Positions 1 through 22,617 of a stretch of 64,000 nucleotides of DNA are shown here, one piece after another. Each line of letters begins with the position of its first letter. Position 1 is the stretch's first letter. The translations under genes were made by a program, and so were the position numbers. The stretch is from Candidatus Omnitrophota bacterium. Lineage in GTDB: Bacteria > Omnitrophota > Gorgyraeia > Duberdicusellales > Duberdicusellaceae. The notes under the pieces are model-generated. The model saw only the letters and a program-made list of their open reading frames with translations. It had not been told where the DNA came from and made no database searches. Location: assembly GCA_016932855.1 (NCBI GenBank), contig JAFGCB010000029.1, positions 2,547 through 66,546 of the forward strand, given 5' to 3'.

Positions 1-3000
1 ATTTACTTCATAGAGCTTTTCCAGGTTTATGTCCTGGGTTGCGCCGATAGATCTAATATCCTTGCTCATATTGACCAGCTGCGAATATACCGAGTCTAAG
101 TTTGTGGTTGATTCCACCGCGCTGGTAACCTGGTTTACTATATCCCGGGAAATCGAGGCAAGGGCTGATTCAACAACTGCAAACTGGGCAGTCATGGTTT
201 CAGCTACCCCTTTAAAGTCGTCAAGGCTTGATGTTGTTCCCATTATCGATGCGACTTGGCCGGCAATCGAGTCGATATCCGAGCTTATGACAGTCATTAT
301 AAGGGCATCAAGCGTCCCTTTTATTGCCTCCGAACAGACGATAGTAAAGTCTCCTCTACCCCATTTAGTATCGAATTTAACCAGATATTCATAGATGCCG
401 GTTGTGCCTATTTCTGCCATCGTTCCTTTTACGATTTGCTGGGCGTTTTCGGCGTCGTATAAATCTATAGAAGGCACAAGACCGGAATAAGTCCTGTAGC
501 GGATAACAAGCTCTTCCCCGCTCTTTACCGTATTTTCACGGTTAAGTATCTCTGATTTCATCGCGGTTTCAGCAACATCTTTTGCTTCCTCGACTGTCTG
601 AGTAAGAGACTCTTCCACGGTGCTTAGGATACTCGATGTATGCGATTTAATAGACGCGGCTGAAGAAGCGATATCGTTCTCTATGTCTTGTTTTGTCTGG
701 CCAAGACCTATGGCTACCGCGTCTTTAATTTGTTCTACTGATGAGGCAAGCTTGGTGGCGGTCTGGGTGAAGAATTCATACTGTAATATTTCTGAACCAA
801 CATCGATATTGGCGCTGGAAGTATAACTCTGGTCCCGGTAGAAAATACTAAGGGTTGCCGGATAGACATAGCCTGCCGCAAAGGTAGTATTAGCAAGGGT
901 AAAGGTGTAGAAGCCGCTGTCGTTAGGCTGGAAAGCAGTAAGAGTATTTCTTACTGTTTCGCCGTCAGGTTCGTATATGGTAAGAGTAGCCGCTCCCATG
1001 GATTCTCTTTCTTCCGGCCGGGTGCCGACTAGTTTACCTTTTCTTTGCAAGGAGCCGACAGCGGCTAAAGTGTCAGTTGCCGGCGCGAAACTGTAAGTAA
1101 GGATAGCTTCCCAGCTTACCTGGGCTGAAGCCGTGTTTTCTAGGTAGCAGGTTATTACATAAGGAGTAATTATTCCCACATATTCCTTAGGCGGAGACCA
1201 GGTAACGCTATTATCGATGTAGTTGGTTTTAGAGAAAAATGTAGTGTAGGTCGCGTAAGCATACCCGGGAATTTCTCTTATAAGGTTATCCGGTGAGATA
1301 AGGCCGGTATCGTGCCAGGAGGTTGCAGGTTCGGTTACTTCTAAATCATCCAGATGGCTCATGGTGTCAAAATCAAGGACCTTAAAATGGACAGGCACAT
1401 AGACAATCCTGAAATCATTCTCGCTGGTATCGGGTATCGAGGCATTAAAGTCAACAGCATTGGAGATTCTAAGCTTTACCGTATCAGAGACAATGTCAGG
1501 GAGAGTCCAGGTGTAAGAATTAAGATTTGCGTCTACCGAGGCAGAGATCAAGTTCCAGTTTAAACCGTCGTCAAGAGTATATTCCAGTTTAGCGCTGTCT
1601 ATATTACCCCGGGTCTGCCAGGTAACGGTATGGGCTGATTTTGCCACCCAGATCTCAGCGCCGTTAGGTGTAATCAGCTCAAAACCGCCTTTTATGGTGA
1701 AGTATCCGGGAGAGGCCCCGGTTACTTCAGTGCGGCTTCCGTCGGTAATCCGGACTTTCATGGTTGAGCCGGTTAAAGAATTCTGAGGTATGCTCCAGCT
1801 GTAGTTTCCGTCATTAGCTTCGCCGCTTATGATTACCTGGGAACTTACAAAGTTATTGTTGGAACTTTCAATCAGGAGATTATCGGAAATATCCAGACCT
1901 TCACAGGTCCAGGTGATATTCAGAGTGTTTTCTAAAACGTAAGATTCACCGCCGGCCGGAGAGGTAATGACAAACCTGGGTATGGCGATAATCTTAAATA
2001 CGCCGCTGGAAAGACCCACTGTTGCCGGCCGGTTTCCGTCAATAATCTTGAACTTAGCGTTGGAAGTAATATAGTCGGCTACCAGCCAGTTAAAGCTTCC
2101 GCTGTTAGGTACTCCGATTGCTTCCAGGCCGGTATCAGCTGAAATCGCGGTATAGTAATTCGCGCCGCCGTCAGGTGAATATTGTAGAACCAGATTGTCA
2201 GATACGGTCCCTTCGGTTGTCCAGATAATAGAGGCGCGGTCATCGACTGCCCAGACGGTTGAAGAGTCGGGTGAAGTAATTGTAATAAGCGGGTCAGCAA
2301 TCTGGAAAATATCGTCACTTTCATCGGTATTGCTAGGCCGGCTGGCATCAGTAATCCGCACCAGACAGCTTGCGCTTACCTGGTCAGGTATACCCCAGGC
2401 ATAGAGGCCGCCGTTGGAAACACCTGTTGCAATCTCGGTCCAGTCACTTCCGGCGTTAGTAGAGTATTCAAGGGTTAGATTATTAGAGACCAACCCTCCG
2501 TTATCAGACCAGGTAATATCCTCTTCTGAACCTACCCGCCAGACCTCACTTCCGTTAGGCGTAAGGATTTGCAGCTGGGGAATAGGCAAAATCGTAAAAC
2601 CGGCATTTGATTTATCCCATACTGCCGGCCGGGTATTGTCGGTAATCCGGACTCTTGCCGTAGCTGTTGGGTCAATAGGCAACTGCCAGGGATGATTTCC
2701 GTTGTTGGGGGTAAGGTTAGCTGCTATGGTGATTATGTTTGAGGCGAAGTTATCTTTTGAATATTCAATTAAGAGGTCATCTCCTACGCTTCCGGTATTA
2801 GTCCAGGTGATATTTTCGGTGTCGCCCACAGTCCAGAGTTCTCCTCCGTTAGGCGCGGTAACTGTCAAGACCGGGTTAACAATAGAAAATACCGCGTCAG
2901 AGTCATCGGTTATAAGAGACTCGGTATTATCGGTAATCCTTACTTTGACCGTTGCCGAGAAATCATCGGGTATTGTCCATTCGTAATTGGGTTGCGCGAT

Positions 3001-6000
3001 TACACCGTCAAAGATTATATCCGAAGTTGAGAAATTGTCTTTGGAATACTCAATTTGCAAATCATCCGATACCGCTCCCACGGTCCTCCACTCGATTTGG
3101 TGGGTTGTCCCGATAATCCAGCTTTCACCGCCGTTAGGTTTAAGTACCTCGACAAAAGGAAGGGTTATTGAAAAAGCCTCATCGGTTTCGTCCTGGGTTG
3201 CCTGCCGTGTTGCATCGAATATCTGCACGTAGCAGTCGGTGGAAATCGCACCGGGTATAGTCCAGGTATAATACCCGTCGTTTGCCTCGCCGGTAGATAT
3301 ATCAGTCCAGTTTGAACCCCCGTTACTTGAGTACTGCAAAGTCAGATTGTCTCTTATTGCTCCGAAATCGTAACCCATTGATGTCCAGCTTACTTCATGG
3401 ACTGTTCCTTCAGCCCATTCTTCCCCGCCGTTAGGCGTAGTTACTGTAATAGTAGGCTCTATTATGGAAAAAGGCGCATCAGAGACATCGATAACGCTGG
3501 GCCGGTCAGCATCAATCATCCGGATAAGGGCGTTACTTGTTATTGAATCAGTAACCGAAAGCCAGGTGTAGCTTCCGGTGTCATCTACGCCGGCATCAAT
3601 ATCAGTCCAGCTTCCTCCGCCGTTTGTAGAATACTGCAGGGTTAAATTGTCACTTACCGCGCCCACCGTAGACCAGGTGATATCATAACTTCCCGTGGCA
3701 TAGAAAGCTTCTCCCCCGTTGGGAAATTCAATTGTTATTGTAGGGATGCTAATGCTGAATATTGCATCCGAAGTATCAGAATACGAAGTGTTGTTTTCAT
3801 CTTCGACTTTTATAAGAGCCTGGGTTGTCTCGGCGTCAGCCACTTCCCAGGAATGAGATTTGCTGTTGGCGATATTGTAGGCAGCCAGGACCCAGTTCTG
3901 GCCGTTATCATCAGAGTAGTAAATATTAATCTTATTATAATCAGCTCCGCCCGATTCCAAGATGTTACCGTAGCTTATCCAGGTAATGGTTTCGAAAGTT
4001 CCGATAGTAAAAGTTTCTCCTCCGTTAGGATAAGTTACGGTAATCTCGGGCTCGCTTAAGATTTTTACGGTTTTGGTGTCGCTCACGCTCGGCCGGTCTA
4101 AATCACTTATTTTCACCAGCACGTTATTTTCAGAAGCTTGGGCCGGTATGTTCCAGGAGTAGGTTGCGTCGTTATCTTCACCGGTTGCGATTTCATTCCA
4201 GTTTTGACCATCATCAGTGCTGTATTCTATATAAAGGTTATCACTTACGTTTCCTTCTGTTTCCCAGGTTATATCATTGGTGTCTCCTACTACCCAAATA
4301 GTTTCTGTGCTTGATACGGGAGAAGTAATGGCGATGCTCGGCTCCATTATTGAAAATTCTTCGGAAATCTTAGATACCGTAAACTGGGTATCTCTTCCTA
4401 CGGGTATATCTACCTCTCTTATTCTTACTCTTACCGTAGCTGAAGGGTCATCGGGCAAGTTCCAGGGATGTGAGCCGACAATGTCATCATTGGGGTTTGC
4501 TCCTTGAGGCGTACCGATGCTTACCTGGGCAATTGTATGTACATCACTTGCGAAATTATCTTTGGAATATTCCAGAATAACTTCGTCCGAGAATTGAAGC
4601 TGGTTAGCTTCCCAGCTTATAGCGTGTTCTGTTCCCAGGGTCCATTCTTCGCCGCCTTGAGGTGAAGTTATGGTAATTTCAGGCGTAGGCACTATATGAA
4701 ATACGGCGTCGGAAGTGTCAGTAATCTCGGGGTTGTTGGAGTTAGAAATCTGTACTAAAACAGTTTCCGATTCCGTATCCGAAGGAATACCCCAGGGGTG
4801 CTCGCTGTCGTTAGGAGTAGGATTTACTATGCTGGTCCAGTTTCCTCCTCCGTCAGTAGAAAAATCAATTTTTACCACGTTTCCGGGAATTGAACCGGGA
4901 GCTGACCAGAGGATGTTGTGAGTTTTTCCTTCTTCCCAGATTTCACCTCCGTTAGGTGAAGTTACTTCCAGAGAAAGAATTCTAAAAGTATCATTAGAGG
5001 TATCCGATACAGTAGGAAAGTCTTCACTGCTTATTTTTATTAGGGCATTCTGGGCCGGGTCATCAGGGATTTCCCAGGTGTAGCTTCCGTCATCATCAAC
5101 ATTTTCTTCAACCGTCTGGTAAATGCTTCCTCCGTCAGCTGAATATTCTATCTTTACAAGGCCGGTTGCGCCGTCAATTCCCTGGGATGTCCAGGTGACT
5201 TCAACGTCCTGGCCGACATTTAAGTCTTCCCCGCCATTAGGATAGGTAATATCGATTCTTGCTTCAATATACTCAATAGTTATATCATCCAAGAGGGGCG
5301 TTTCTTCTCCGTCGGAGTAGAGTATTGCTTTATACTGGACCCAGCGGTCGCTGGAAGCATCGCTGTGCAGGGAATTAATGCTTATTGAGCCTGAAGGGTC
5401 GATGTAGAAAGTTTCCCCTGTAAGAAGCGTTACCATTATATTATCTAAAGAAGGGGTCATAAATGTGCCGGGTTCAGTATGAAGGTAAACTCTGTAGTAA
5501 AAATCTCCGCTAGGATACAAATCCTGGAATGAAGAAATGTTGGAATTTACGGTTGCGGCAAGATTGGCATTGTCATAACCTAATTCCACTTCTTCCCAGC
5601 TGTCGCCGTCCCACCAGTACCATCTGTAGCCGTCAGCTGATATCTGGTATTTAATCCCCGTATTATGCGGTATATTGGCTATTTCCTGGAAATCAGCTAT
5701 TCTACTGTTTTCATAAAATACTCCGAAAACCGGCTGGATAACCGGGTTGTTTACCGCGTAGGCAGCAATGTCCTGGGTTCCTTCAACTTCATAAATATTT
5801 AATTCCAAGGGAGCGTTAACATAGTGCGAGCGGTGCTGGTAATGGTGCAGGATTTCTTCAGGGCTTAAGGCCCGCCGATAGATTCTTACGTCATCTATAA
5901 GCCCGTAGTAAGCAAAAGCCCCTGATATTTCCTTTCCGATTTGGAGGTTATCATCATTGGGGAGCATATTTACGGTGCATTCAGAGCTGTATCTTAGCTG

Positions 6001-9000
6001 GCCGTTACTGTAAATCTTTACCAGGCCTTCTTCCTGGTCATAGGTGGCTACGATATGATAGGTATTGCCTGCCGAGATGAACCCGCTTGAAGGAGTAAAG
6101 TTATATTCCTCTCCGTTATAGAAGATAAAAGAGATATTATTTCCGTCTTGGAGTAGTCTGTAATTATAGCGCGGCGCTGCATCATTTCCTTTTACCACCA
6201 GGGTCTGGGTTGAGACGTTATCGCTGGGTTTTATCCAAGCTTCAATGCTTATTCGTTTAGTTGTGTCTAAGCTTGGGGAATCAACCCTATAAGCGTAGGA
6301 AGTAACCCCGTCAAACTCCAGAGAATTCCCCGAAGGAAACCCGGTAAGGTCTTCCAAATCCCAGTTAAGGCCGGATAAGGTAATGTGGTTGTTATTCCCG
6401 CTGGAATCAGCGCTGCTAAATCCTCCGCCTTCATCCATATGGTAGAGAGCCGAAGAAGCTCCGTTAGTATAGCTTAAAGGATTGTCTATCCAGCCTGCGC
6501 CGTTCTCTAATATCGCGTCGTTATTATTACTGGTTAAGTCCAGGGCGTCGGTGCCGCTATTCTCATTAAAGGGCAGGTAGCAAACAAGCCCGCTTTCATT
6601 TCCAGTAAGGTATCTTTGTTTATATTCGTTTATCAAAGCCTGGCTGTTAGCCATATTCCAGACTCTGGCCTCGTCAATAAATCCTTTAATCCCTTGGCCT
6701 ATTATAAGATTATTGCTGTTAGTGTTTATGGTTCCGATTGATTCGACCGATTCTTTTTCTAAGCCGTCTACAAAGATCTTGGCATTAGCCCCGTCATAGG
6801 TAAAAGCAATATGCATAAGCTGGCCGAACTGGTAGGCATCAAGCACAGAAATAACATTGGAGCCGTTTATAAGCCCTGATAGCCCCTGTTCATTGAATTT
6901 CAGTTCATAAGCGCCGCTTTTTCCGATTATCGTATCATTGATAGCCGGCTGGTTCTCTTCGGTTGCGAAATTGGTTGGAAAAGATACGCCGGTGTTAGGT
7001 GAAAAAGCAACCCAGCCTATGGTTTCGTTTCCTCTTGTTCCGTCAAAGGGCGAAGGTTCTTCAATCGCTACTTCTACGTCCTGAGAGGTTGTATTTCTTA
7101 CTATTGCATAGCCAGGATCCCCGGCGTCTTCTGATTGCATATGGGCAACTACACCCACGTCATTGCGGGTGAAGCTGAAGTTAAAGCGGTCAAAGTTTTC
7201 ATCAACTTCATCGCCTGAGCGGTAGGCTTCTATTTTAGCCTCAGTATCTGTTTCTACAGATATAACAGCGTAAGCCACTGTTTCAGCATTAGCGATAGTA
7301 GGGTTACTATCTTCGGTCGTCTCTATCTGGACTTGAAATGAATTATTACCTACGTTTCTTACCCGGGTAAACATAGGAAGGCTGTTATTGTCGGTCTGGG
7401 TTGCTGCTAAAACAACCGGAGGAGAAGTAAAATAGGTCGTGGTATATACTGTTTGATAACCCGAGCCGCTTATTTCCAGGGTCCCTACTTCCACGGTCAT
7501 GTTTCCTATGGTATGAATCCCTTCCTCAAATATTAAATAAGCTACATTTTGAGGGATAATCAAATCGTCTCCAGCGGAGGGAGATTCGATAAGCTTTAAA
7601 TCAAATCCTGAGGAGCTGACATTGGTTATAAAGGGATTTTGAGTAGCAGTTCCGCCTGAGCGGTAGGTGTCAGACGGAAGCTGTTCGGAAGCGAATACAC
7701 GGGGGTTGGTAAAACCGATTAGAGAAACATTGATGTTGGTTCCGGTTGCCTGGATAATACCGCCGTCATAAGCCGACAAGGCTGATTCAGACTCAAAAGT
7801 AGCATTAGGATTTCCGTAATACATAAGGATTTTCTTGGTTGAATTTTGGGGAAAGACCGGAATTTTTACTAATATTGTGGCTTCAGTGGGGCTTGATTCA
7901 GTTATCCTGTGGTCAAGCCTTGTACCGTCAGTATCCAAGAAACGTAAGTCTGAATAATCAGCATTCATCTTGCCGGATTCGAAGCTTACGTCGAATTGAC
8001 CCAGGATATTTGTGTACTTGCTTCCTCCTGTGTTATCCAGTGTTATTATCTTGCGGTAGCTGAAGCCGGGAAGCCATTTAAGGGTTGAGGTTTCAGTTTC
8101 TTGGGAGCCGAAATTAACTGAAGGCGAGATTGTGGTTCGAAGTATAACCCAGTCGTCAGTATGGGTTTGGTAATTCATGCTGTAATGGCTTACCGCGCCT
8201 CTTAAATGGGTTTCGCTGGAGTAGCTTGAATCATAGGCTTGTATCCAGGTCGGCGAGCTTGCTAGTTTATAGTAGTAGATCGCCCCTTGATTCTTTAAGA
8301 CTATTTTGCAGTCATACCATTCACCGGGAGTATAACTGCCGACTCCTCCGCGGCTGGTTCCGTCTTCATATATATAGATATTATTGCCGGTGAAGTAGAG
8401 GCAGTAGACCAAATCCCAATATCCGGCGGCTGTTCCTGAGTCATGCAAGCCGACCATGGCCGTAGCACTGGAGTCAGTCTTAAACTTAAATTGGAAATAT
8501 TTGTCAGCAGCTCTATTAAAAGTATCTTTGGTGATAAGGTAGCAGTCCCAGCCGGTATTATCGTTATTAAAGCTTATAAATTCGTTTTGGGATACAGTTC
8601 CTCCCCCGTAAAGAAATTTATTGCTGTCTATAACTGTCCCTGAAAAATCTACATTAAACTCGTATTCGGAAATGGTATTGTCGCTTTCGCTGGAAGCTGA
8701 AGAATTTCCGTAGTACATATAGATTTCTTTGTTTGCGTTAGCCGGGATTTCCGGGATAACCAGCCAGATTTCCGCTTCTGTGGGGTTTGAGGAGTTTATT
8801 TTATAACGCAGCTTTTGGGAATGTTCAGCATTCCAGAAGCGTAAGTCCGAATAATCAGCGTTCATTTCACCCTGGTAAGGAACAGTAAATTCAACTGTCA
8901 TATAGCTGTATGCAGGGCCTGCGGAATTATTAATAGTAAGTTTCTTGCGGTAGCTAAAGCCTTCCGGCCAGTAGTCAATATCGGCTTTTACTTGAGCTTC

Positions 9001-12000
9001 CAGGGTTATGCTGCTGGTTGCATCTAAAGAAGTAGCGCTTGAAACAGCTGCCCTGTCATCTACTCCGTCCAGTAATAAGCCTGATACATTAAATCCGGTC
9101 TCATCAAAGTCTTTGTAGAGAGTATTATCATAATTAGAGGTGTTTGAGGCGTCGCTTTTTCCGTAATAAAGGTATATTTTTTTGGTTTGTTCTTCGGGAA
9201 TTAAGGGCACTTCTACGTAAAGAGTCCCTGTTTTGGCGGCGTAGCTAAAGGCTGTTCGGGTATAATCAAGAATAGTGATATTATCCGAATCAACAAAGCG
9301 GATATCATAACCGTCGCTTCTGCACCTTTTCCAAAAGCCTTCGTGGCTGGGAGTAAGCTCTATTTTAGCCGGATAATTTGTAAGTTCTATACCGCTTGTA
9401 TTATCTATCTCGATATCCAGGTGGTATTCCCAGCCGGAAAGAGAAGGTGAAGTCGTATGTTCTTCGTAAAGGGTAAAATAGTAAGGTATGTCACTTCCGG
9501 TTCCGCCTCCTCCGGTAAAGTCATCAATAAAACCGATTGACCAGTTGTCGGTATGAGACATCTCATCCCGGTCATTATGGCTTATCCCGACTTTTAGAGG
9601 CGATTCCGAAGAATAGACTGAATTATACAATTCTATCCATTCAGTTTCACCGGAAAGCCGGTAATAATAGGTAGCCCCGGGATTTTTTAAAGTAATCTTT
9701 ATGTCATACCATTCTCCGGGAGTATAAGATCCTACGCTTCCTCTGTTGCCGCCGTCCTCGTAAACCCTAAGCTCGCCGTTATTAAAGTAGAGGCAGTAGA
9801 TTAGATCGGTGTAACTTGCTCCGCTTCCGGCGTCATGCCAGCCCACCATTACTCTTGTTCCCAAGTCAGCTTTAAACTGGGCAATAAAGGATAAGTTGTT
9901 TTCCCGGGCAAAAACTTCAGTGGTTATTAAGTAGGTATCCCAGCCATCAGCAGTATCGTTACGTAAGGATAGATATTCGTCCTGGCTTATATTTCCTCCG
10001 CCGAATTCAAACTTGTCGCTGTCAATGGTTGTGCCGGCGAAATCCGCGTATAAAGGAAAGACTTCAGCATCACTCTCGGATACTGCCGCGGCATTTCCGT
10101 ACTTAAGATAGATTGTTGTTTCTTCGCCTGCCGGCATAAAGGGGATCTTGATATATATTCGTGCGTATTGGGCTGCGTAATCAAAGGTTGCTCCCTGGTC
10201 ATGGATGTTGTAGCCTAAGCTATTCCCCTGTCCATCGGAAAATCTTACGTCGCTTCCGTCGCTTTTTACGTGCTCCCAGAAGTCTTTATTCGAAGAGTCT
10301 ATTTCAATAGTCGCCACAAAATTAGTATAGGAGTTTGCGCCGGAGGTATTATCAAATATAATCCTCTGGGTATAGTCAAAGCCCTGGTAGAGTTTCTTAA
10401 GTCTTCCTACACCGCTAGCTACTTCAATGCTTGTAGCGTAAGCATAGTCAGTATCTAAGGAAAAGTCATGGGTAAAGCCTTGGGTTCCTCCGGGTCCTAC
10501 CCATGAAGCAGAAGCAAGGCTTGCTTCATCAGCAGCTGTTCTTAGCTGGAAGCGTATATCCGAACCTCCGGGCTGGGTTTCTGACCAGGAAAGTCCTGTT
10601 ATTCGGTTAGCGGTTGTTGAGGTATCATAAGGAGATGAGATAAGGGTTTGCTTGGCCGGGTATTTGGTATAGTTTAGGTCTATATCCTGCAGTTCCGGCA
10701 AGTTATTGATGTCATCGGCAAAGAACCTAAGCTGGTACTGGATATAGGCTTGCCCGTCAACTATTGCCGGATAGGACAAGGTTAAGTCATCCCCTTTATG
10801 CCGGATTTCAATATCATCCCAGTCCTGGGCATCAGCCATTGATTCGCTGCCGGAAGTGCGGGCCCTTAGTTCAAAGGAAGAAGCAGCTACATTGGAATTC
10901 CAGTCAACAATATCAAAACCTTGGTTTCGCCCCACTTCTTTTACGGTTGAGGTAAAAGAGCCTTTTTTAAATACCAGGAATTTAGAGATATTTTCTTTAT
11001 AATCGCCGTGCAGAGCATAGAGATAGTCACCGGTTCCCGGGTAGACTATCCGGGAAAGGCCGTCAAACTGCTGGGGGCATAGTTCGTCTAAGGCTTCCCA
11101 GGTGTTCTGGGACATGGAGTATCTAAAGACAGTTCCTGTAGGGCAAGAATATTCATAGCTTGAGCCCTGGGAAAGATAGATAAAGTCGCCTGCTCCGGGA
11201 TAGACTAAAGATGAGGCCATGTAGCTGTTTCCTCCTAAAAGAGCCGGCACGCTCGCTAAGGCTTCCCACTGGCTGCTGGATAAAGAATATCTCCAGAAAG
11301 CTCCGGTGCCGTTACCTCGGGTAGCATAGATGTAATCGCCTGAACCCGGATAGCATAATGAAGCTCCCCAGTTTGTTGCTGCCGGGGTGGCAGTAGCAGT
11401 TGACCAGGAGCCGGAGACAGGGTTGTAGGACCAGAAATCAGTTGTATTCCCTCCCCTAAGAGCGTATATCCTTTGGGCTGTTGAGACAAGCTGGTGGCCG
11501 TTGCCAAAAGGCTGCGAGGGAGTATTTAAGACATCCCATTCATTAGCCGGTATGGAGTAGCGGACAAAATTACTGGTATTTCTGCCTCTGGTGGCATATA
11601 GATGACTTCCCTGTCCGGGATAGATAAGTTGTGCTCCGTAGTTATCCCAGCGCCAGTTAGGTGCTGAATTCCAGGGGCTGGTAAGAGAAGTCCAGGTCCG
11701 GTCAGTAAGGTTATATCGATAAAAAGTGTGATAAGCTCCGGAATATAGAGTATTGCCGTCTGCTCCCTCGCAGAAAGAGCTGTAATGAATAGTATGACAG
11801 TGTACATAAGGAAAGCCGACTTCCAAATCCCAGGTATCCTGGCTTATAGAATAGCGGGCAAAGAGCTGGTTGTAACCGTCAGTAAGATAGATAAAATCCC
11901 CTGTTCCCGGGTAGAACATATCCGAGTCATAAGGAGAAGTATAGTGGCCGAAAGGAGGGTTGCTTAATTCATACCAGGCATCTTCGGATATATCGTAGCG

Positions 12001-15000
12001 GTAGAATTTAAAATAGCCTGAGCCTGAAAAGTAATAAATAGAGTCGCCGTCACCAATATCGGGGTGATAATATATAGTTCCGTTTTGGCAGTAATAGGGC
12101 GAATTCGTAAGCGGCTGCCAGGTATCCAGGTCAGTGCGGTACGCGTAAAAAGAATTACTGTTTCTTCCTACTTTCCAGAAGACAGTATTTTCCGAAGAGA
12201 CATATCTTAAGCGGTTGCCCCGGGGCGATGAGGTGGTAACAGCATCCGGCAGCGCCTCTACTGAGGGCGGGTTATCTAAAGATGTTTCCCAGCTGTCAGT
12301 AGAGATAGTGTATCGCATGAATACCGAGCGGTTCCAGGAGCTTTCAGTATAATAAGGGTCATGTCCGGCAATAAGATAGATAATATCACCGCTAGAACTC
12401 ATCTGGGAGCCGTCAGTAAAGAGAACAGGTGTTGCTTCATTGGTTTCAGCATTGGATAGCTGAGTCCAGGTTCTGTTTACAATATCATAACGCCAGAGAT
12501 GATTAGTATAGCTTCCTTCAATAAGATAGATATAGTCGCCGCTTCCCGGGTAAGTTGCCCTTGTCCCGAAGCTCATGGAGAAAGGAGTATATATAGTGCC
12601 GGTAAATCTATCCTGCGATACTGAATATTTCCAGGCATGCCTTCCGAATATACCCGTAAATATATATACAGTATCACCGCCGGCATGAACCACGCTTCCG
12701 TAGCCAAATCTTGAGGAAGCATATTCTTCAAGCTTTTCTGTCCACTCATTTGTAGATATGGTATAGGTATGTAATTGATAGGAGTCTTCATTTAATAGAT
12801 AAACATTATTTCCTACCGCTTCTAAAGAAAGGCAATAGGTTGCTGCGACTAAGGGAGGTTGGGACAGCCATTCCCAGGTGCCTTCATTCGCGCCCTGGAA
12901 AGCGTAGCGCACGAAACAGCCGTTATTAGTATAGCCGTTAATAAAATATAGGTAATCCCCGCTTCCCGGGTATTTCATCTTTGCCGAATAGTAAAACGGT
13001 ACAGGCGTTTTTAAGGCAACCCCTGGACTTTCTTCGGTTATCCATTCGCCGGTTGAGATATTATATTTCCAGAAATCACTGCTGTTTCCCCGGGCGGCAT
13101 AGATGTAATCGCCAAAGCCGGGATAAGCCAGACAGCTTCCGTAATAGACAGTATCCGGAGCCATATTAAAGGCATTAAAATTCCAGCGGGTACTATTGGT
13201 GTGGCCGCTGGTAGCTCCGAAAGTAACAGTTATACCGTTATTTAAGTCCTGGGAAGCTCCGGTTATAGGGATATCCGTTGCCTGCCAGGTTGAGCCGTTA
13301 TCATCTGACCAGCGGAAGGTATCCGGTGTTCCTTCCGAGTCGATTTGAACCCGGTAGCGCATTAGATTTTCTTCACCGGTATAAGCCCCGCCGGTAGTCA
13401 TATCATCAAGGGCTGTTTGTGAAGAGAAGGTAAGCGGCCCGATAGTAGGATTAGCTACTTCTGACCAGGTATCAGTTGAAGGGTCATATTTCCAGAAGTC
13501 AGGAGATTGGTTTCCTCTAAATGCATATATATAATTTCCCACTGTAACTAAAGCTCCTCCCCAGTAGACTTCTGCCGGAGTATCTGATAAGGTTTCCCAG
13601 CTATTGGCTGAAGTATTATATCTGGCAAAATTAACGGCGGTTTCTCCTCTTGTGGCGTAGACATAGCCGTTAAGATAAGCAATATCCGCACCGTGGTAAA
13701 TACCAAATGGCGCATTTGCTAAATTTTCCCATTCGTTATTAGTAATTGAATATCTTTCAAGATAATTGTTACTTGAACCGCGCGTCCGGTATATGTAGTC
13801 TGTTCCGTCATAGGCTAAAGCTGCTCCCCGGTAATTGGTTGTCCTTTGTGGATGGGGAAGAAAGTTCCATTCTGAAGTGGAAGTATCAAAGGCTAACGAG
13901 CCTCCTGTGTAGTTACGCACAGATATGTATTTAAGCTCTGTTCCTGCTCCTCCGGGGTGGTAAAGGAATCCTCTTTGGGAATATATAGGTAATTTAGGCA
14001 GTTCTTCCCAGGTTTCACTGCTTATGGAATAACGGGAGAAGCGGCCGTATTCAGCGTATTGGATGCCGTATATATAATCTCCTGTTCCCGGGTAAAATAT
14101 ATCTGATATGCCGTGATCAGCGTTAGGCGGCTTAAAGAAATCCCAGCGCTGTTTAGTGATATGGTAAGCGCAGAAATTAGTAGAGTTATATCCCCTGTTT
14201 AAATATATGTAATTGCCTGTTCCCGGATATACTAAAGTTGACTGTCTGGTAGGAGTCCAGTTGGAGTAGATATTTTCTCTTGGGGTCCAAGTATCGGAGC
14301 CTATGTCATATTCGTAGAATAAGGCGCTGCTTCCTGCTGTGCAGAAGACTTTACTGGTAGTAGCAGTCAGGTTTCCGCCTCCTCGGACATAAGTCGGGAC
14401 ATTAGCCATTACTGTCCAGGTGTCTGCGCTTATTGAGTATCTCCAGAACCCTCTTCGGGAGCCGCCCTGAGTTACGAAAATATAGTCTTCATTCGGGCCT
14501 GCTCCCGGCCAGGCAAGGCTTGCTCCTGCGCCGGTTCCCCCCGGCATTTTAGCTAAGAATTCCCATTCCTGGGTATCCACCGAGAATCTGCCTAGAATAT
14601 CTTTATCCCAGACAGCGTATATATAGACTTTAGAGTCGGTGTGCACTACTCTTTCGTAGTCCGAATACCAGTCTAACGTGGGAACCTCATTAAGGGAAAC
14701 CCATTTTCCCAGGTTATCTACAAAAGGGTCTTCTAAGCCTCCTTGTAAGACTACCGAGGCGTCTTCTCCGGGGTTTCCTGAAATTTGGACGTTTTCAGTT
14801 GTCCCTCCCTGGTAGTCTTCATACACAGTATCTTTAATCGAGAACTGGTCAGAAGTTAGAAGAGCCTTTCCGAACTGGCCGGTTCCCGTGGCAATGACAT
14901 TATCGTCTTTAGCGGAGAACTCGTTCCAGTCGGTCTGGTCACCGGGATGGCTAGCAGTATTTGCGCTTGTTCCACCTGACCAGTCAGTCTGGACAAAGCT

Positions 15001-15102
15001 GTCAGCATAGGCCTTGCTTTCCGGTAGAAAGCCCAGGGGTCCTATTTGGCTAAAGATAAAGACCTCGATTAAAAGGATAATAAGAGTCTTTTTCCTATTC
15101 AT
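1..15102 (-). CDS. Giant secreted multidomain surface protein/adhesin, partial: the N-terminal >5,030 codons are in the window and the 3' end lies beyond position 1. Domains: signal peptide, Kelch-type beta-propeller repeats, 4x DUF2341-like modules, LamG/ConA-like domain, ~13 tandem Ig-like repeats, then a distinct C-terminal region.
   Basis: Start is ATG at 15102 (rc of cat at 15100-15102), preceded by AAGGAG (rc of 15111-15116) at 8 nt. N-terminus MNRKKTLIILLIEVFIFSQIGPLGFLPESKAYA is a signal peptide. Sampling the minus frame with codon first base congruent to 0 mod 3 at about 1020, 2040, 5040, 7020, 8400, 10020, 12000 and 14040 found no in-frame stops. Hand translations: YVYATRGETAVNFARYNTSANSWETL and YIYAFRGNQSPDFWKYDPSTDTW (Kelch-like blades, about 13.6 kb); SYRK...ADYSDLRF...IYMYYGN repeated 4x (DUF2341 signature, about 10.4-7.8 kb); YHIVATYDQEEGLVKIYSNG (LamG/Laminin_G_3 signature, about 6.0 kb); PNGGELWTVGDTENITWT... 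repeated with ~285-nt period (5.3-1.45 kb). All plus-strand ORFs listed in this span are short antisense artefacts. Confidence 0.8.
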   Translation of the reverse strand, partial: MNRKKTLIILLIEVFIFSQIGPLGFLPESKAYADSFVQTDWSGGTSANTASHPGDQTDWNEFSAKDDNVIATGTGQFGKALLTSDQFSIKDTVYEDYQGGTTENVQISGNPGEDASVVLQGGLEDPFVDNLGKWVSLNEVPTLDWYSDYERVVHTDSKVYIYAVWDKDILGRFSVDTQEWEFLAKMPGGTGAGASLAWPGAGPNEDYIFVTQGGSRRGFWRYSISADTWTVMANVPTYVRGGGNLTATTSKVFCTAGSSALFYEYDIGSDTWTPRENIYSNWTPTRQSTLVYPGTGNYIYLNRGYNSTNFCAYHITKQRWDFFKPPNADHGISDIFYPGTGDYIYGIQYAEYGRFSRYSISSETWEELPKLPIYSQRGFLYHPGGAGTELKYISVRNYTGGSLAFDTSTSEWNFLPHPQRTTNYRGAALAYDGTDYIYRTRGSSNNYLERYSITNNEWENLANAPFGIYHGADIAYLNGYVYATRGETAVNFARYNTSANSWETLSDTPAEVYWGGALVTVGNYIYAFRGNQSPDFWKYDPSTDTWSEVANPTIGPLTFSSQTALDDMTTGGAYTGEENLMRYRVQIDSEGTPDTFRWSDDNGSTWQATDIPITGASQDLNNGITVTFGATSGHTNSTRWNFNAFNMAPDTVYYGSCLAYPGFGDYIYAARGNSSDFWKYNISTGEWITEESPGVALKTPVPFYYSAKMKYPGSGDYLYFINGYTNNGCFVRYAFQGANEGTWEWLSQPPLVAATYCLSLEAVGNNVYLLNEDSYQLHTYTISTNEWTEKLEEYASSRFGYGSVVHAGGDTVYIFTGIFGRHAWKYSVSQDRFTGTIYTPFSMSFGTRATYPGSGDYIYLIEGSYTNHLWRYDIVNRTWTQLSNAETNEATPVLFTDGSQMSSSGDIIYLIAGHDPYYTESSWNRSVFMRYTISTDSWETSLDNPPSVEALPDAVTTSSPRGNRLRYVSSENTVFWKVGRNSNSFYAYRTDLDTWQPLTNSPYYCQNGTIYYHPDIGDGDSIYYFSGSGYFKFYRYDISEDAWYELSNPPFGHYTSPYDSDMFYPGTGDFIYLTDGYNQLFARYSISQDTWDLEVGFPYVHCHTIHYSSFCEGADGNTLYSGAYHTFYRYNLTDRTWTSLTSPWNSAPNWRWDNYGAQLIYPGQGSHLYATRGRNTSNFVRYSIPANEWDVLNTPSQPFGNGHQLVSTAQRIYALRGGNTTDFWSYNPVSGSWSTATATPAATNWGASLCYPGSGDYIYATRGNGTGAFWRYSLSSSQWEALASVPALLGGNSYMASSLVYPGAGDFIYLSQGSSYEYSCPTGTVFRYSMSQNTWEALDELCPQQFDGLSRIVYPGTGDYLYALHGDYKENISKFLVFKKGSFTSTVKEVGRNQGFDIVDWNSNVAASSFELRARTSGSESMADAQDWDDIEIRHKGDDLTLSYPAIVDGQAYIQYQLRFFADDINNLPELQDIDLNYTKYPAKQTLISSPYDTSTTANRITGLSWSETQPGGSDIRFQLRTAADEASLASASWVGPGGTQGFTHDFSLDTDYAYATSIEVASGVGRLKKLYQGFDYTQRIIFDNTSGANSYTNFVATIEIDSSNKDFWEHVKSDGSDVRFSDGQGNSLGYNIHDQGATFDYAAQYARIYIKIPFMPAGEETTIYLKYGNAAAVSESDAEVFPLYADFAGTTIDSDKFEFGGGNISQDEYLSLRNDTADGWDTYLITTEVFARENNLSFIAQFKADLGTRVMVGWHDAGSGASYTDLIYCLYFNNGELRVYEDGGNRGSVGSYTPGEWYDIKITLKNPGATYYYRLSGETEWIELYNSVYSSESPLKVGISHNDRDEMSHTDNWSIGFIDDFTGGGGTGSDIPYYFTLYEEHTTSPSLSGWEYHLDIEIDNTSGIELTNYPAKIELTPSHEGFWKRCRSDGYDIRFVDSDNITILDYTRTAFSYAAKTGTLYVEVPLIPEEQTKKIYLYYGKSDASNTSNYDNTLYKDFDETGFNVSGLLLDGVDDRAAVSSATSLDATSSITLEAQVKADIDYWPEGFSYRKKLTINNSAGPAYSYMTVEFTVPYQGEMNADYSDLRFWNAEHSQKLRYKINSSNPTEAEIWLVIPEIPANANKEIYMYYGNSSASSESDNTISEYEFNVDFSGTVIDSNKFLYGGGTVSQNEFISFNNDNTGWDCYLITKDTFNRAADKYFQFKFKTDSSATAMVGLHDSGTAAGYWDLVYCLYFTGNNIYIYEDGTSRGGVGSYTPGEWYDCKIVLKNQGAIYYYKLASSPTWIQAYDSSYSSETHLRGAVSHYSMNYQTHTDDWVILRTTISPSVNFGSQETETSTLKWLPGFSYRKIITLDNTGGSKYTNILGQFDVSFESGKMNADYSDLRFLDTDGTRLDHRITESSPTEATILVKIPVFPQNSTKKILMYYGNPNATFESESALSAYDGGIIQATGTNINVSLIGFTNPRVFASEQLPSDTYRSGGTATQNPFITNVSSSGFDLKLIESPSAGDDLIIPQNVAYLIFEEGIHTIGNMTVEVGTLEISGSGYQTVYTTTYFTSPPVVLAATQTDNNSLPMFTRVRNVGNNSFQVQIETTEDSNPTIANAETVAYAVISVETDTEAKIEAYRSGDEVDENFDRFNFSFTRNDVGVVAHMQSEDAGDPGYAIVRNTTSQDVEVAIEEPSPFDGTRGNETIGWVAFSPNTGVSFPTNFATEENQPAINDTIIGKSGAYELKFNEQGLSGLINGSNVISVLDAYQFGQLMHIAFTYDGANAKIFVDGLEKESVESIGTINTNSNNLIIGQGIKGFIDEARVWNMANSQALINEYKQRYLTGNESGLVCYLPFNENSGTDALDLTSNNNDAILENGAGWIDNPLSYTNGASSALYHMDEGGGFSSADSSGNNNHITLSGLNWDLEDLTGFPSGNSLEFDGVTSYAYRVDSPSLDTTKRISIEAWIKPSDNVSTQTLVVKGNDAAPRYNYRLLQDGNNISFIFYNGEEYNFTPSSGFISAGNTYHIVATYDQEEGLVKIYSNGQLRYSSECTVNMLPNDDNLQIGKEISGAFAYYGLIDDVRIYRRALSPEEILHHYQHRSHYVNAPLELNIYEVEGTQDIAAYAVNNPVIQPVFGVFYENSRIADFQEIANIPHNTGIKYQISADGYRWYWWDGDSWEEVELGYDNANLAATVNSNISSFQDLYPSGDFYYRVYLHTEPGTFMTPSLDNIMVTLLTGETFYIDPSGSISINSLHSDASSDRWVQYKAILYSDGEETPLLDDITIEYIEARIDITYPNGGEDLNVGQDVEVTWTSQGIDGATGLVKIEYSADGGSIYQTVEENVDDDGSYTWEIPDDPAQNALIKISSEDFPTVSDTSNDTFRILSLEVTSPNGGEIWEEGKTHNILWSAPGSIPGNVVKIDFSTDGGGNWTSIVNPTPNDSEHPWGIPSDTESETVLVQISNSNNPEITDTSDAVFHIVPTPEITITSPQGGEEWTLGTEHAISWEANQLQFSDEVILEYSKDNFASDVHTIAQVSIGTPQGANPNDDIVGSHPWNLPDDPSATVRVRIREVDIPVGRDTQFTVSKISEEFSIMEPSIAITSPVSSTETIWVVGDTNDITWETEGNVSDNLYIEYSTDDGQNWNEIATGEDNDATYSWNIPAQASENNVLVKISDLDRPSVSDTKTVKILSEPEITVTYPNGGETFTIGTFETITWISYGNILESGGADYNKINIYYSDDNGQNWVLAAYNIANSKSHSWEVADAETTQALIKVEDENNTSYSDTSDAIFSISIPTITIEFPNGGEAFYATGSYDITWSTVGAVSDNLTLQYSTNGGGSWTDIDAGVDDTGSYTWLSVTDSITSNALIRMIDADRPSVIDVSDAPFSIIEPTITVTTPNGGEEWAEGTVHEVSWTSMGYDFGAIRDNLTLQYSSNGGSNWTDISTGEANDGYYTWTIPGAISTDCYVQIFDATRQATQDETDEAFSITLPFVEVLKPNGGESWIIGTTHQIEWRTVGAVSDDLQIEYSKDNFSTSDIIFDGVIAQPNYEWTIPDDFSATVKVRITDNTESLITDDSDAVFSIVNPVLTVTAPNGGELWTVGDTENITWTNTGSVGDDLLIEYSKDNFASNIITIAANLTPNNGNHPWQLPIDPTATARVRITDNTRPAVWDKSNAGFTILPIPQLQILTPNGSEVWRVGSEEDITWSDNGGLVSNNLTLEYSTNAGSDWTEIATGVSNGGLYAWGIPDQVSASCLVRITDASRPSNTDESDDIFQIADPLITITSPDSSTVWAVDDRASIIWTTEGTVSDNLVLQYSPDGGANYYTAISADTGLEAIGVPNSGSFNWLVADYITSNAKFKIIDGNRPATVGLSSGVFKIIAIPRFVITSPAGGESYVLENTLNITWTCEGLDISDNLLIESSNNNFVSSQVIISGEANDGNYSWSIPQNSLTGSTMKVRITDGSRTEVTGASPGYFTIKGGFELITPNGAEIWVAKSAHTVTWQTRGNIDSAKLEYTLDDGLNWNLISASVDANLNSYTWTLPDIVSDTVKLRISNAVDFNASIPDTSENDFRIVYVPVHFKVLDFDTMSHLDDLEVTEPATSWHDTGLISPDNLIREIPGYAYATYTTFFSKTNYIDNSVTWSPPKEYVGIITPYVITCYLENTASAQVSWEAILTYSFAPATDTLAAVGSLQRKGKLVGTRPEERESMGAATLTIYEPDGETVRNTLTAFQPNDSGFYTFTLANTTFAAGYVYPATLSIFYRDQSYTSSANIDVGSEILQYEFFTQTATKLASSVEQIKDAVAIGLGQTKQDIENDIASSAASIKSHTSSILSTVEESLTQTVEEAKDVAETAMKSEILNRENTVKSGEELVIRYRTYSGLVPSIDLYDAENAQQIVKGTMAEIGTTGIYEYLVKFDTKWGRGDFTIVCSEAIKGTLDALIMTVISSDIDSIAGQVASIMGTTSSLDDFKGVAETMTAQFAVVESALASISRDIVNQVTSAVESTTNLDSVYSQLVNMSKDIRSIGATQDINLEKLYEVN
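1450..5300 (-). repeat. Coding tandem array of ~13 Ig-like/Kre9-KNH-like domains (~95 aa, ~285 nt each) inside the giant gene.
   Basis: Repeated translations such as ITYPNGGEDLNVGQDVEVTWT, VTAPNGGELWTVGDTENITWT and ELITPNGAEIWVAKSAHTVTWQT. Antisense plus-strand ORFs occur with 285-288-nt spacing (2414, 2702, 2987). Confidence 0.7.
7780..10480 (-). repeat. Four diverged tandem DUF2341-like modules (internal duplication of a ~450-900-nt coding unit) inside the giant gene.
   Basis: Nucleotide-level similarity between 8290-8460 and 9650-9850 (gtcataccattc(a/t)ccgggagtataa...). YYGN-type motifs (rc atgtattacgg / atgtactacgg) sit at about 7821, 8718, 9165 and 10097, each preceded by ADYSDLRF(L/W). 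Confidence 0.65.
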
Positions 15103-15146: not shown

Positions 15147-15234
15147 CAAGAATATAAATCCTTTATTACTTAAAAGATATACCTTAATAAGTTCCCAAAG
15201 TCTCTCGTTCTGTAATAAAACGTTAATAATTTTT

Positions 15235-15271: not shown

Positions 15272-16252
15272 TCATTTGCCTAATTTGCCCTCCAGTTCCT
15301 TTACTTTCTGTTTTTCCGCTTCCAGCCTTTTGGACATAGCCTCATATGAGACCATATTAGCCCGGTATAATTCGTCCAAGCCCCGCTTTATTCTTTCTTT
15401 TTCGGTTGTTAATTTTTTACTGTATTCTTTTTCCTGTTTTTGAGAAAGGTCGGTAAACTCGCCTTTTAAGTGGCGGTTTGTCCCCATAAGGGCTATATTT
15501 ACCAGGCCCAGTATTGCAATAGCCAGAGTCCCGGCCAGCACGAACTTTTTATTTACTTCCGGAGAAAGTAACTGGGGCTTTTGTTTAGACTCGGCTATTT
15601 TTCTTTTTATCTTGTCTTTAAAAGCATCGCTTCCCAGCAGCCTGGCGCTCTTTATTTTCTTGACCAGATTATCGAACTCTTTCTGAGGAGGGTTTTCAAA
15701 GAATTGCTTGTAGTCTTGAGCCGGTGAAATTTCGCTAAGAGCAATTTCTACTTCCTTAATTTCCTCGTTTATGTCAGGTTCATTAAAGCCTTCGTTTTCA
15801 AGGCTTTCATCCTTTAAGTATAGGGGAAGGCTTGTGTATTTGTAGTCTTTCGCCTCAGAGCTTAAGCCCAGGTGATAGGGGTTGCGGTGAATATAGGCAG
15901 TCATATAGGCCAAGTAAGATTTCTTCTCTACCAGAACCATCCGGAAGCGTTCCTGCAGGAGGTGGCCGCCTCTGTTATAGCGGCTGTTAAAGTATTTGAT
16001 GTAGGTGTTGTTTATATCGTGCATAATATCGGATATAGTTACCCCGCTGGTTAGCTCGATTAAAAGGTGAAGGTGGTTGCAGAGAAGGCTAAAGGAAAAC
16101 AATTTAAACCCGTATTGCTCCTTATATTTTTTCAAGAGCCCGATATAGGTTTTAAAGTCTTCTTTGTCCTTAAAGATAGTCTGGTTATTGTCTCCCCGGG
16201 TTGTTATGTAATAGAGTTCTTCTTCAACATGAATACGCGGCAGTCTAGGCAT
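15272..16252 (-). CDS. IS200/IS605-TnpA- or RAYT-like HUH-Y1 domain protein (N-terminal ~165 aa) fused to a linker, a TM helix and a C-terminal coiled coil.
   Basis: RIHVEEELYYITTRG...LLCNHLHLLIE (HxH motif)...AYIHRNPYH (catalytic Tyr motif) matches the Y1 transposase / COG1943 fold. TM helix is FVLAGTLAIAILGLVNIALMG. The tail KERIKRGLDELYRANMVSYEAMSKRLEAEKQKVKELE is paralogous to the tail of the 16745..17137 product. Start revised to ATG 16252 with GGAGGA just upstream. The ORF-track TTG start at 16312 overlaps an intrinsic terminator. Confidence 0.7.
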   Translation of the reverse strand: MPRLPRIHVEEELYYITTRGDNNQTIFKDKEDFKTYIGLLKKYKEQYGFKLFSFSLLCNHLHLLIELTSGVTISDIMHDINNTYIKYFNSRYNRGGHLLQERFRMVLVEKKSYLAYMTAYIHRNPYHLGLSSEAKDYKYTSLPLYLKDESLENEGFNEPDINEEIKEVEIALSEISPAQDYKQFFENPPQKEFDNLVKKIKSARLLGSDAFKDKIKRKIAESKQKPQLLSPEVNKKFVLAGTLAIAILGLVNIALMGTNRHLKGEFTDLSQKQEKEYSKKLTTEKERIKRGLDELYRANMVSYEAMSKRLEAEKQKVKELEGKLGK

Positions 16253-16310
16253 ACTTCCTCCTTGGCTTGGCCTCGCAGCAGGAGCGTGCGTGGCACTTTT
16301 TGGAATTTTC

Positions 16311-16341
16311 AAAAAAAAATCCCAGGATGCTGTTTCCTGGG
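16311..16341 (-). terminator. Rho-independent terminator on the minus strand (7-bp stem CCCAGGA/TCCTGGG followed by T9).
   Basis: Minus-strand reading is tttatttCCCAGGAaacagcaTCCTGGGattttttttt. It lies between the 16745..17137 gene and the HUH gene start. Confidence 0.6.
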
Positions 16342-17964: not shown

Positions 17965-17980
17965 TTTAAAACTTAGGGAT

Positions 17981-21770: not shown

Positions 21771-21772
21771 GT

Positions 21773-22615: not shown

Positions 22616-22617
22616 AT

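Follow-up and report, generated by a model that had tools for sequence, protein, structure and literature searches.

The giant gene and its product

We analysed a 64,000-nucleotide stretch of DNA from contig JAFGCB010000029.1, hereafter the window, whose left edge cuts through a giant protein-coding gene. On the minus strand this gene runs from an ATG at position 15102 to position 1, which amounts to 5,034 codons without a stop in the translation of the window. A first-pass annotation, made from the letters alone, had described just such an uninterrupted frame. An in-frame stop lies six codons upstream of the ATG, an AGGAG sequence is found 8 nt before it, and only one other open reading frame of at least 100 amino acids (aa) overlaps the 15 kb of the giant (121 aa, 29-394). 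The same annotation had considered the gene still incomplete. It does continue off the window, but only 44 aa are missing and the full length is 5,078 aa.

The missing 3' end was reached via the Logan record of the downstream partner protein (P0198). The 29.5-kb Logan contig SRR13394437_76949 holds the same locus; 9,748 nt are identical to the window, and a further 17,702 nt differ by two single-nucleotide polymorphisms (11789 and 11802). The gene call on this contig is 5,078 aa long and ends with …KPVTQTWFEFK and TAA TAA, 44 codons beyond the window edge. The window therefore contains codons 1-5034 of 5078 (1..15102, minus strand), while the remaining 44 codons and the two stop codons lie just past its position 1. 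Exact 50-mers from the left edge of the window had no match in genome contigs or metagenome contigs. In the homolog search, the longest match listed was ~1,230 aa long, and the 5,078-aa self-match was not among the matches listed. The assembled product is identical to a public protein (P0252) annotated as hypothetical, thus the 5,078-aa sequence itself is not new.

The giant frame is not an artefact of repeat assembly. The 13 immunoglobulin (Ig)-like units that it encodes are only 26-51% identical to each other, no 20-mer recurs within the gene, Tandem Repeats Finder (TRF) reported no repeats in it, and colinear relatives of 4-5.7 kaa (thousand aa) are present in many independent samples. All named close homologs of its C-terminal module and of the partner protein come from Ca. 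Omnitrophica/Omnitrophota metagenome-assembled genomes (MAGs), which assigns the organism to Omnitrophota. The giant is hence a genuine 5,078-aa protein of an uncultivated Omnitrophota bacterium, in line with the first-pass expectation of an uncultivated lineage and poor annotation.

Domain architecture

Modules were counted with Pfam and with purpose-built iterative hidden Markov models (HMMs), and residue numbers convert to window positions as nt = 15102 − 3(aa − 1). The protein begins with a signal peptide (aa 1-33, 15004..15102, minus strand), made up of MNRKK, a hydrophobic core and AYA|D. By Kyte-Doolittle hydropathy, aa 5-27, followed by AYA|D, form the sole hydrophobic segment of the giant. 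A prepilin-type signal was considered and rejected, as the motif G|F-x-x-x-E is absent and the family does not keep the Glu of the hydrophobic core. The N-terminal region that follows (aa 34-158) begins with FVQTDWSGG; across the family, an AXA-type site precedes F[VL]QTDWSGG in most relatives.

The next ~1,230 residues (aa 159-1390, 10933..14628, minus strand) hold about 24 blades of the Kelch-type beta-propeller, and an insert of ~95 aa (aa 554-650) breaks the series. Our own HMM recognized 23 of these blades, and one more is likely at aa 374-421. The Pfam scores are above the gathering thresholds (GA) for Kelch_6 (4e-33, 112.6 bits, GA 25.3), Kelch_1 (78.1 bits, GA 20.1) and Beta-prop_ATRN-LZTR1 (83.9 bits, GA 50). 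A stretch without annotation (aa 1391-1574) separates the blades from a lectin-type middle region (aa 1575-3095, 5818..10380, minus strand).

The middle region holds four DUF2341 modules, two LamG domains, two domains of ~190 aa and an H_lectin-like stretch. The DUF2341 modules, found by both Pfam and our own HMMs, lie at aa 1575-1695, 1890-2008, 2046-2160 and 2344-2459. Their matches to DUF2341 (PF10102) reach 1e-30 and 3e-38 (106 and 130.8 bits, GA 23.4), with the Pfam model covering only the final ~80 residues of each ~115-aa module. The two ~190-aa domains (aa 1712-1900 and 2177-2356, own HMMs) are paralogous and have no Pfam match. The label "ConA-like" was not established for them, since hhalign against LamG gave a probability of 62%. 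The H_lectin-like stretch (aa ~2558-2602) is weak, its Pfam E-value of 4e-4 being below the cutoff.

Two stretches match Laminin_G_3 (PF13385; 9e-40, 136.7 bits, GA 27.6). One LamG domain is contiguous (aa 2926-3090, Laminin_G_3 9e-40), and the other is split into aa 2003-2045 and ~2724-2835. The assignment of its first strands (aa 2003-2045) is supported by an alignment z of 6.7, a score reached by none of 2,000 shuffles. Nested inside this first LamG are ~675 aa (6598-9096, minus strand), which comprise the third DUF2341 module, the second ~190-aa domain, the fourth DUF2341 module and the H-lectin-like region. An ortholog with 52% identity (locus L012) has the same split, thus the insertion is conserved.

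Beyond the lectin-type region, exactly 13 Ig-like repeats of the Kre9_KNH/Big_7 type (Pfam Kre9_KNH and Big_7, E 1e-28 to 1e-35) occupy aa 3283-4563 (1414..5256, minus strand). The protein closes with a conserved, non-repetitive C-terminal module (aa 4564-5034 in the window, 1..1413, minus strand, and to aa 5078 beyond it). The parts list of the first-pass annotation thus holds up well: a signal peptide, many Kelch blades, four DUF2341-like modules, about 13 Ig-like repeats and a non-repetitive C-terminus running off the window had all been read from the sequence, and the one LamG domain it named is present twice. The Kelch, DUF2341 and LamG assignments all score above the Pfam gathering thresholds.

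Searches of the 5,078 aa with Pfam, NCBIfam and Protein Data Bank (PDB) sequences revealed no catalytic domain, and PDB sequence searches with three unannotated segments of the giant gave no match. Likewise, a search of the giant for outer-membrane targeting signals (type IX secretion system (T9SS) C-terminal domain, autotransporter barrel, RTX, LPXTG, PEP-CTERM) found none. Judging by its domain matches, the giant is composed solely of binding-type and spacer folds.

A family of giants in Omnitrophota

To collect relatives, 1.84 billion cluster representatives were searched exhaustively with a profile, and the best 148 were then searched with aa 4564-5078 using phmmer. Among these 148 representatives, 32 clusters (50% identity) carry the C-terminal module, thus the family comprises at least 32 clusters. 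In all of them the module ends within four residues (0-4) of the C-terminus, apart from the partner fusions described below. The clusters are mostly of 3.8–5.7 kaa, with apparently complete members of 3,994-5,743 aa. About 18 of 22 members share one layout, consisting of a signal peptide, Kelch blades (13-23, aa ~140-1300), DUF2341 modules (1-4), in part LamG domains (0-5), Ig repeats (11-15) and the C-terminal module. Three members have no Kelch blades and carry 24 Ig repeats each. In one of these (P0321), discoidin (F5_F8_type_C) and LamG heads replace the Kelch blades in the same gene context.

Compared with 12 relatives, identity increases towards the base, being 26-44% in the Kelch part, the most divergent region, 26-51% in the DUF2341/LamG region, 30-52% in the Ig repeats and 40-57% in the C-terminal module. 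The C-terminal module is also 50-57% identical to Omnitrophota proteins over 705 aa. At the related locus L007, the giant is only 28% identical to that of the window, while the neighbouring ExeA-like ATPase and secretin are 76% and 55% identical. The base of these proteins is thus conserved, and the head evolves fast and can be exchanged. Most of the related secretin loci come from Omnitrophota as well. On these comparisons, the giants represent a previously undescribed but widespread Omnitrophota family, conserved across the phylum. What is new here is this family, with its fixed C-terminal module, recurrently fused partner, nested LamG insertion, swappable heads and secretin/peptidase context.

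The C-terminal module and its tail-anchored partner

The C-terminal 535 aa match no Pfam or NCBIfam family, and the C-terminal module has no PDB sequence relative either. An AlphaFold2 model of the module (m382f47102dfc, 9 aligned sequences) shows three beta-sandwiches, the second with a predicted local distance difference test (pLDDT) of ~90. A single helix of ~80 residues connects sandwiches 2 and 3, and a low-confidence helical tail follows the last one. This tail ends with ...KPVTQTW[FY]E[FY][KR]-COOH.

Directly downstream of the giant lies a gene for a partner protein of ~260 aa, which we found at eight loci (L003, L010 of this organism, L012/L013, L014/L015, L016, L017 and L018). In this organism the partner has 267 aa, and its gene starts 117 nt past the stop of the giant. 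It consists of a signal peptide, a beta-domain, helices, a C-terminal transmembrane (TM) helix and a Lys/Glu-rich tail. The partner family has at least 252 homologs, every named one from Omnitrophota, and no Pfam or NCBIfam model describes it.

In at least nine clusters the partner is fused in frame to the giant. In four of the fused proteins (P0004, P0299, P0262 and P0275), the mature partner follows two residues after the final conserved motif of the giant, with the junction …VVQTW[FY]EYRS|VV[LI][KR]A..NPS. In these fusions, precisely the stop codon, the intergenic stretch and the signal peptide of the partner are gone. In a sister group that has a variant tail (P0348, P0339, P0355, P0298 and P0273), all members are fused. 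The recurrent split and fused states imply that the C-terminus of the giant and the partner act together, for which they are strong comparative evidence. The assembly of giant and partner would then have a type I topology, with one TM helix and a short cytoplasmic tail at its end. Because the C-terminal module is coupled or fused to a tail-anchored partner, tethering at the cytoplasmic membrane is indicated rather than free secretion. In an AlphaFold2 model of a natural fusion, the partner is predicted as an Ig-like sandwich, a helical bundle and the TM helix, at pLDDT 90-97.

At one locus (L002:165-13369, European Nucleotide Archive contig NODE_2759), the giant homolog is present as two overlapping frames of 3,232 aa and 1,122 aa, split inside the Ig array by either a frameshift or a sequencing error. 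The 3' part of this homolog counts among the natural partner fusions. A candidate minimal giant in a complete genome (L011, CP070797.1) was rejected, as the 445-aa call beside Ns is a fragment of a different Ig protein.

Gene neighbourhood

Upstream of the giant, and all on the minus strand, the window contains in transcriptional order genes for a MerR-family regulator, an ExeA/GspA-like ATPase, a GspC-like protein, a secretin, two tetratricopeptide repeat (TPR) proteins, a small TM and coiled-coil protein and a Y1_Tnp-like protein. The secretin (630 aa, 19279..21171) matches Pfam Secretin at 8e-46 and Secretin_N at 8e-19, and lies 4 kb upstream of the giant. Its orthologs in L007 and L017 are 53-55% identical. 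A closer assignment as PilQ, GspD or MshL was rejected, since the three scores are about equal and all below the cutoffs. The secretin operon opens with the MerR-family regulator (88 aa, MerR_1 6e-11), the ExeA/GspA-like AAA ATPase (280 aa, AAA_22 3e-17) and the GspC-like protein (204 aa, T2SSC 5e-6, just below the cutoff), together at 21156..22884; the same order is found in L007 and L018. A PEP-CTERM system was also rejected, as the ATPase reaches 167 bits against the XrtA/PEP-CTERM-associated ATPase model (cutoff 324) and the giant lacks a PEP-CTERM motif. The two TPR proteins (237 aa and 431 aa, the latter with a long coiled coil; 17251..19276) match Pfam TPR families and resemble PilW/Tgl, with both NCBIfam matches (type_IV_pilW and social_mot_Tgl) below their cutoffs.

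Between the TPR genes and the giant lie the small TM and coiled-coil protein (130 aa, 16745..17137) and a protein with a Y1_Tnp/REP-tyrosine-transposase-like domain, a TM helix and a coiled coil (15272..16312). The latter matches Pfam Y1_Tnp at 9e-13 and NCBIfam REP_Tyr_transpos at 1.6e-18, below the cutoff, and inspection by eye shows an HLH (HUH-like) and a YIHRNP motif. The small protein is paralogous to the C-terminal coiled coil found in the Y1_Tnp proteins, to which it is 34-37% identical. In four loci from different samples, namely the window, L007 (15072-16019, 44%), L016 (626-1579, 46%) and L017 (4497-5381, 36%; see also 3902-4210), a Y1_Tnp-like gene is the direct upstream neighbour of the giant. 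Because of this conserved position, the protein looks like a domesticated, membrane-bound HUH-fold protein and not like a mobile element.

A terminator-like hairpin with a T-run lies directly upstream of the Y1_Tnp-like gene. Between this gene and the giant, no promoter or terminator signal was above chance, and a promoter and terminator scan near the start of the giant performed no better than chance. The 173-nt leader of the giant folds better than shuffled sequences (z = -2.4). It includes, ~10 nt upstream of the Shine-Dalgarno sequence, a stable GC-rich hairpin without a U-tract (15125-15150, minus strand; GCCGCUGCCGG-UAACA-GCAGCGGU), which may be a regulatory or processing site.

The secretin operon is present upstream of the giant in all four loci whose upstream side is visible (the window, L007, L017 and L018). 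L007 is on a 143-kb contig, and L017 shows the entire arrangement on one 33-kb contig. L018, a Kelch-less variant, has a two-component system and a 448-aa DUF2341 protein in place of the Y1_Tnp-like gene. The L016 contig, in which the Y1_Tnp-like gene adjoins the giant, starts too near the giant to show the operon. In addition, L018 carries two tandem secretin genes (L018:1791-6408), the second of which (980 aa) is fused to TPR repeats and could be specialised for the giant.

Downstream of the giant come, in this order, the partner, Peptidase_MA_2, in some loci a GGDEF response regulator, the F-type ATP synthase operon, MshEN-GspE, GspF and PilM/PilN, an arrangement kept in L002, L003, L012, L014, L016, L017 and L018. 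The Peptidase_MA_2 protein, which is secreted and has an HEMGH motif, directly follows the partner in L010 (10865-11683, just past the window edge), L003, L012, L016, L017 and L018, and is absent from L014. In L011, L017 and L018, it is followed by the response regulator-GGDEF gene. A complete ATP synthase operon sits between giant, partner and peptidase on one side and the MshE-like GspE-GspF-PilM/N genes on the other, in the same order in all seven loci; occasionally, genes for 23S_rRNA_IVP (four-helix-bundle) proteins or response regulators break up the ATP synthase stretch. The rest of the window contains no pilins and no other type II secretion system (T2SS) parts.

Other features of the window

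A 963-aa autotransporter (23926-26817, minus strand), unrelated to the giant, combines a calcineurin-like metallophosphatase passenger with a PATR repeat and a C-terminal Autotransporter beta-domain (E 4e-62). Its presence indicates that the organism has an outer membrane and type V secretion system (T5SS) export. A cluster at 41291-48216 (minus strand) encodes a CHASE2-guanylate/adenylate cyclase (755 aa), a possible BBP2_2-like protein, a FecR-domain protein and a ShlB/FhaC-type POTRA transporter. This transporter (581 aa, 46471-48216, minus strand) is TpsB-like and also unrelated to the giant. Together with cyclic-nucleotide-binding (cNMP-binding) proteins nearby (38000-39271 and 59965-61146) and SpoIIE phosphatases, the cluster looks like a cyclic-nucleotide signalling neighbourhood. 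Further along, a 663-aa protein with four Lcl_C domains (52728-54719, minus strand; Pfam E 6e-116) is a candidate surface protein. The only tRNA in the window is a tRNA-Ser (CGA) at 26992-27086 (minus strand).

A candidate tethered adhesin

The bacteria of the Omnitrophota are ultra-small, abundant and for the most part uncultivated, and they are believed to live attached to other microbes or to prey on them. The reading that we favour, and regard as probable though well short of certain, is that the giant is a Sec-exported, membrane-tethered lectin-fibre or adhesin built like beads on a string. Once exported by Sec, its N-terminal distal half, with Kelch, DUF2341, LamG, possibly LamG-like and H-lectin-like domains, would bind glycans on a host, on prey or on another substrate. 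The 13 Ig-like repeats would act as a spacer stalk, and this stalk and the base, with its beta-sandwiches and ~12-nm helix, would project the head away from the cell. At the other end, the C-terminal module would join the partner, and through it the C-terminus of the giant would be fixed to the cytoplasmic membrane. The giant would probably cross the outer membrane by way of the neighbouring secretin operon, which would place it on the cell surface, and the Peptidase_MA_2 protein may process or release it. Export through the secretin is plausible, given a signal-peptide-like N-terminus, a secretin above the Pfam cutoffs and a gene order kept in four loci.

Several points weigh against this reading. 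The signal peptide was called by eye, with no predictor. The AlphaFold2 model of the C-terminal module has a predicted template modelling score (pTM) of 0.32, and fold searches (Foldseek/PDB) with the module and the partner returned only generic Ig-, macroglobulin- or titin-like structures, with TM-scores of at most 0.23 over the whole query. In the model of the natural fusion there is no confident interface between giant tail and partner, the tail and the junction having a pLDDT of 31-48. NCBIfam and Pfam give no match to PilY1 or MshQ, only a local LamG similarity to TafC (40.9 bits, cutoff 410). Furthermore, a helical TM anchor puts the C-terminus at the inner membrane and does not account for how a polypeptide held there would also cross the outer membrane; the giant could therefore remain in the periplasm. 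It may also be that the secretin operon serves just a pilus or T2SS-like system together with the downstream GspE, GspF and PilM/N, and part of the synteny could be inherited gene order, since the ATP synthase operon sits in between.

The position directly downstream of the secretin operon had led the first-pass annotation to suggest a dedicated export route. The adjacency recurs in all four loci that can be assessed, but the operon forms one end of a larger type IV pilus (T4P)/T2SS-like supercluster and is perhaps just the T4P/T2SS-like machine of the cell, thus a dedicated route is plausible at most. In such a setting, the giant could also be a tip adhesin analogous to PilY1/MshQ, carried through the secretin on the tip of a T4P or T2SS pseudopilus that the MshE-like ATPase, GspF and PilM/N of the downstream genes would build, with the partner as a docking factor before assembly. 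A role as PilY-like tip adhesins has been suggested for DUF2341 proteins encoded in T4P loci (PMC4858521), the giant has a signal peptide and a beta-propeller as PilY1 does, and its gene lies between the secretin/PilW-like operon and the MshEN-GspE, GspF and PilM/PilN genes (L002, L003, L012, L014, L017 and L018). However, the giant resembles neither the PilY1 nor the MshQ models in sequence, no pilin genes were found beside it in the window or the loci read, and the GspE/F genes lie beyond the ATP synthase operon. The fused relatives, which carry their own C-terminal TM anchor, are also hard to square with a pilus tip. We consider a tip adhesin unlikely.

Likewise unlikely is a periplasmic or envelope scaffold on the inner membrane, binding peptidoglycan or other envelope glycans, for which the nearby secretin would merely reflect inherited gene order. 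A signal peptide combined with a C-terminal TM helix, in the partner or the fusion, corresponds to a type I inner-membrane topology, no outer-membrane targeting signal was found in the giant, and the ATP synthase in the supercluster shows that unrelated genes can keep their order. Yet the fast-evolving head is swapped between lectin folds, as is typical of proteins facing other organisms and not of housekeeping scaffolds, and the string of domains, ~100-150 nm long when estimated from the domain count, would be about as long as these very small cells. Moreover, the secretin operon adjoins the giant in four of four loci, in one of them at a giant identity of 28%. A freely secreted T2SS substrate, an enzyme or toxin-like effector that would break down the cell walls of prey, as has been suggested for larger giants of Omnitrophota, could be released by the conserved downstream metallopeptidase, but is very unlikely given 5,078 aa without a catalytic domain (Pfam, NCBIfam, PDB sequence search), a composition of binding and spacer folds throughout and a recurrent fusion to a TM-anchored partner that argues for retention.

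The tethered adhesin that we favour can be taken one step further, to a bolder form that we consider quite unlikely. Here, the giant would be a single-polypeptide, pilus-like fibre, anchored in the membrane by its C-terminus (through the partner or its own TM helix) and permanently threaded through the co-conserved secretin. The ~12-nm helix and the beta-sandwich base would span the periplasm, the Ig stalk and the interchangeable heads would reach ~100 nm out from an ultra-small cell living as an episymbiont or predator, and the metallopeptidase and the regulators linked to cyclic di-GMP (c-di-GMP) would control release. If true, a secretin would be the conduit of a tethered protein fibre, and not of a pilus or a released substrate.

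For the way in which Omnitrophota hold on to their hosts, this family offers a tractable candidate attachment organelle. With 4-6 kaa, made up entirely of soluble domains, these giants are small enough to be studied as recombinant modules, unlike the giants of 30-150 kaa on which interest has centred until now. The split and fused relation between the C-terminal module and the partner translates into a testable protein-protein interaction and a defined topology. In addition, the family is a natural context for working out the role of DUF2341.

Comparison with known systems

Giant genes adjoining T2SS/T4P-like systems have been reported from Omnitrophota (bioRxiv 10.1101/2023.11.21.568195). The Omnitrophota giants described so far have 10-147 kaa, many TM helices and often SecA-like or enzymatic modules (West-Roberts et al. 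2023; Nielsen & Lui 2026), with the survey of Nielsen & Lui 2026 centred on proteins of at least 10 kaa. Giants of the Archaeovorin type exceed 30 kaa and have numerous TM regions and a divergent SecA DEAD helicase domain. Like these Omnitrophota giants, our family consists of very long exported or membrane-associated proteins near T2SS/T4P-like genes (gspD, gspE, gspF), with a proposed role in attachment to host or prey. Unlike them, it is limited to 3.8-5.7 kaa, has a signal peptide only, and combines a fixed architecture with a specific C-terminal module and partner. The giant of the window is no Archaeovorin, having 5,078 aa, one N-terminal hydrophobic segment and no Pfam match to SecA. 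Neither West-Roberts et al. 2023 nor Nielsen & Lui 2026 mentions Kelch, DUF2341, LamG, Kre9 or secretin.

Large DUF2341 proteins with signal peptides, encoded in T4P loci, were inferred to be PilY1-like tip adhesins by Makarova et al. 2016 (PMC4858521), and DUF2341 proteins of more than 4,000 aa have been reported in Patescibacteria (PMC11809585). These two are the nearest parallels in the literature. Our giant is similarly large, with a signal peptide, DUF2341 and T4P-type genes around it. It differs from the tip-adhesin proposal in having no PilY1/MshQ match and no adjacent pilins in the stretches read, and in its TM-anchored partner or fusion. The 13 Ig-like repeats are of the same type as in the bacterial Kre9_KNH/"Ser-Thr-rich GPI-anchored family" proteins, and thousands of environmental proteins have such arrays. 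Most of these, however, have T9SS C-terminal domains (PF18962) or other ends and belong to other phyla; the C-terminal module and the partner are confined to the Omnitrophota set.

Membership in the RTX/T1SS, T9SS and T5SS classes is not supported by the sequence. The giant has no GGxGxDxUx motif and no RTX Pfam match, and no type I secretion system (T1SS) genes are present in the window or the related loci. It lacks the Por_Secre_tail of T9SS substrates (PF18962/TIGR04183), ending instead with ...TQTWFEFK, and Pfam finds no Autotransporter or TPS domain of the T5SS in it.

The giant repeat adhesins LapA, MpIBP and SiiE have several thousand residues arranged like beads on a string, in which an Ig-like stalk projects ligand-binding, often sugar-binding domains, and one terminus is retained by the cell. 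LapA is released by a dedicated protease, LapG, under the control of c-di-GMP. Our giant shares the long Ig stalk of this beads-on-string design, and its conserved Peptidase_MA_2 neighbour, accompanied by a GGDEF regulator in some loci, recalls a c-di-GMP-controlled adhesin release in the style of LapG/LapD. The route and the anchor differ. In contrast to RTX/T1SS adhesins, the giant has an N-terminal Sec signal peptide and a secretin operon as its neighbour, and its retention would be C-terminal, by way of a tail-anchored inner-membrane partner, whereas RTX/T1SS adhesins are held by an N-terminal plug in a TolC-like channel. By analogy, the giant probably works like LapA, MpIBP and SiiE but does not belong with them by sequence, and we class it as a candidate giant fibrillar adhesin.

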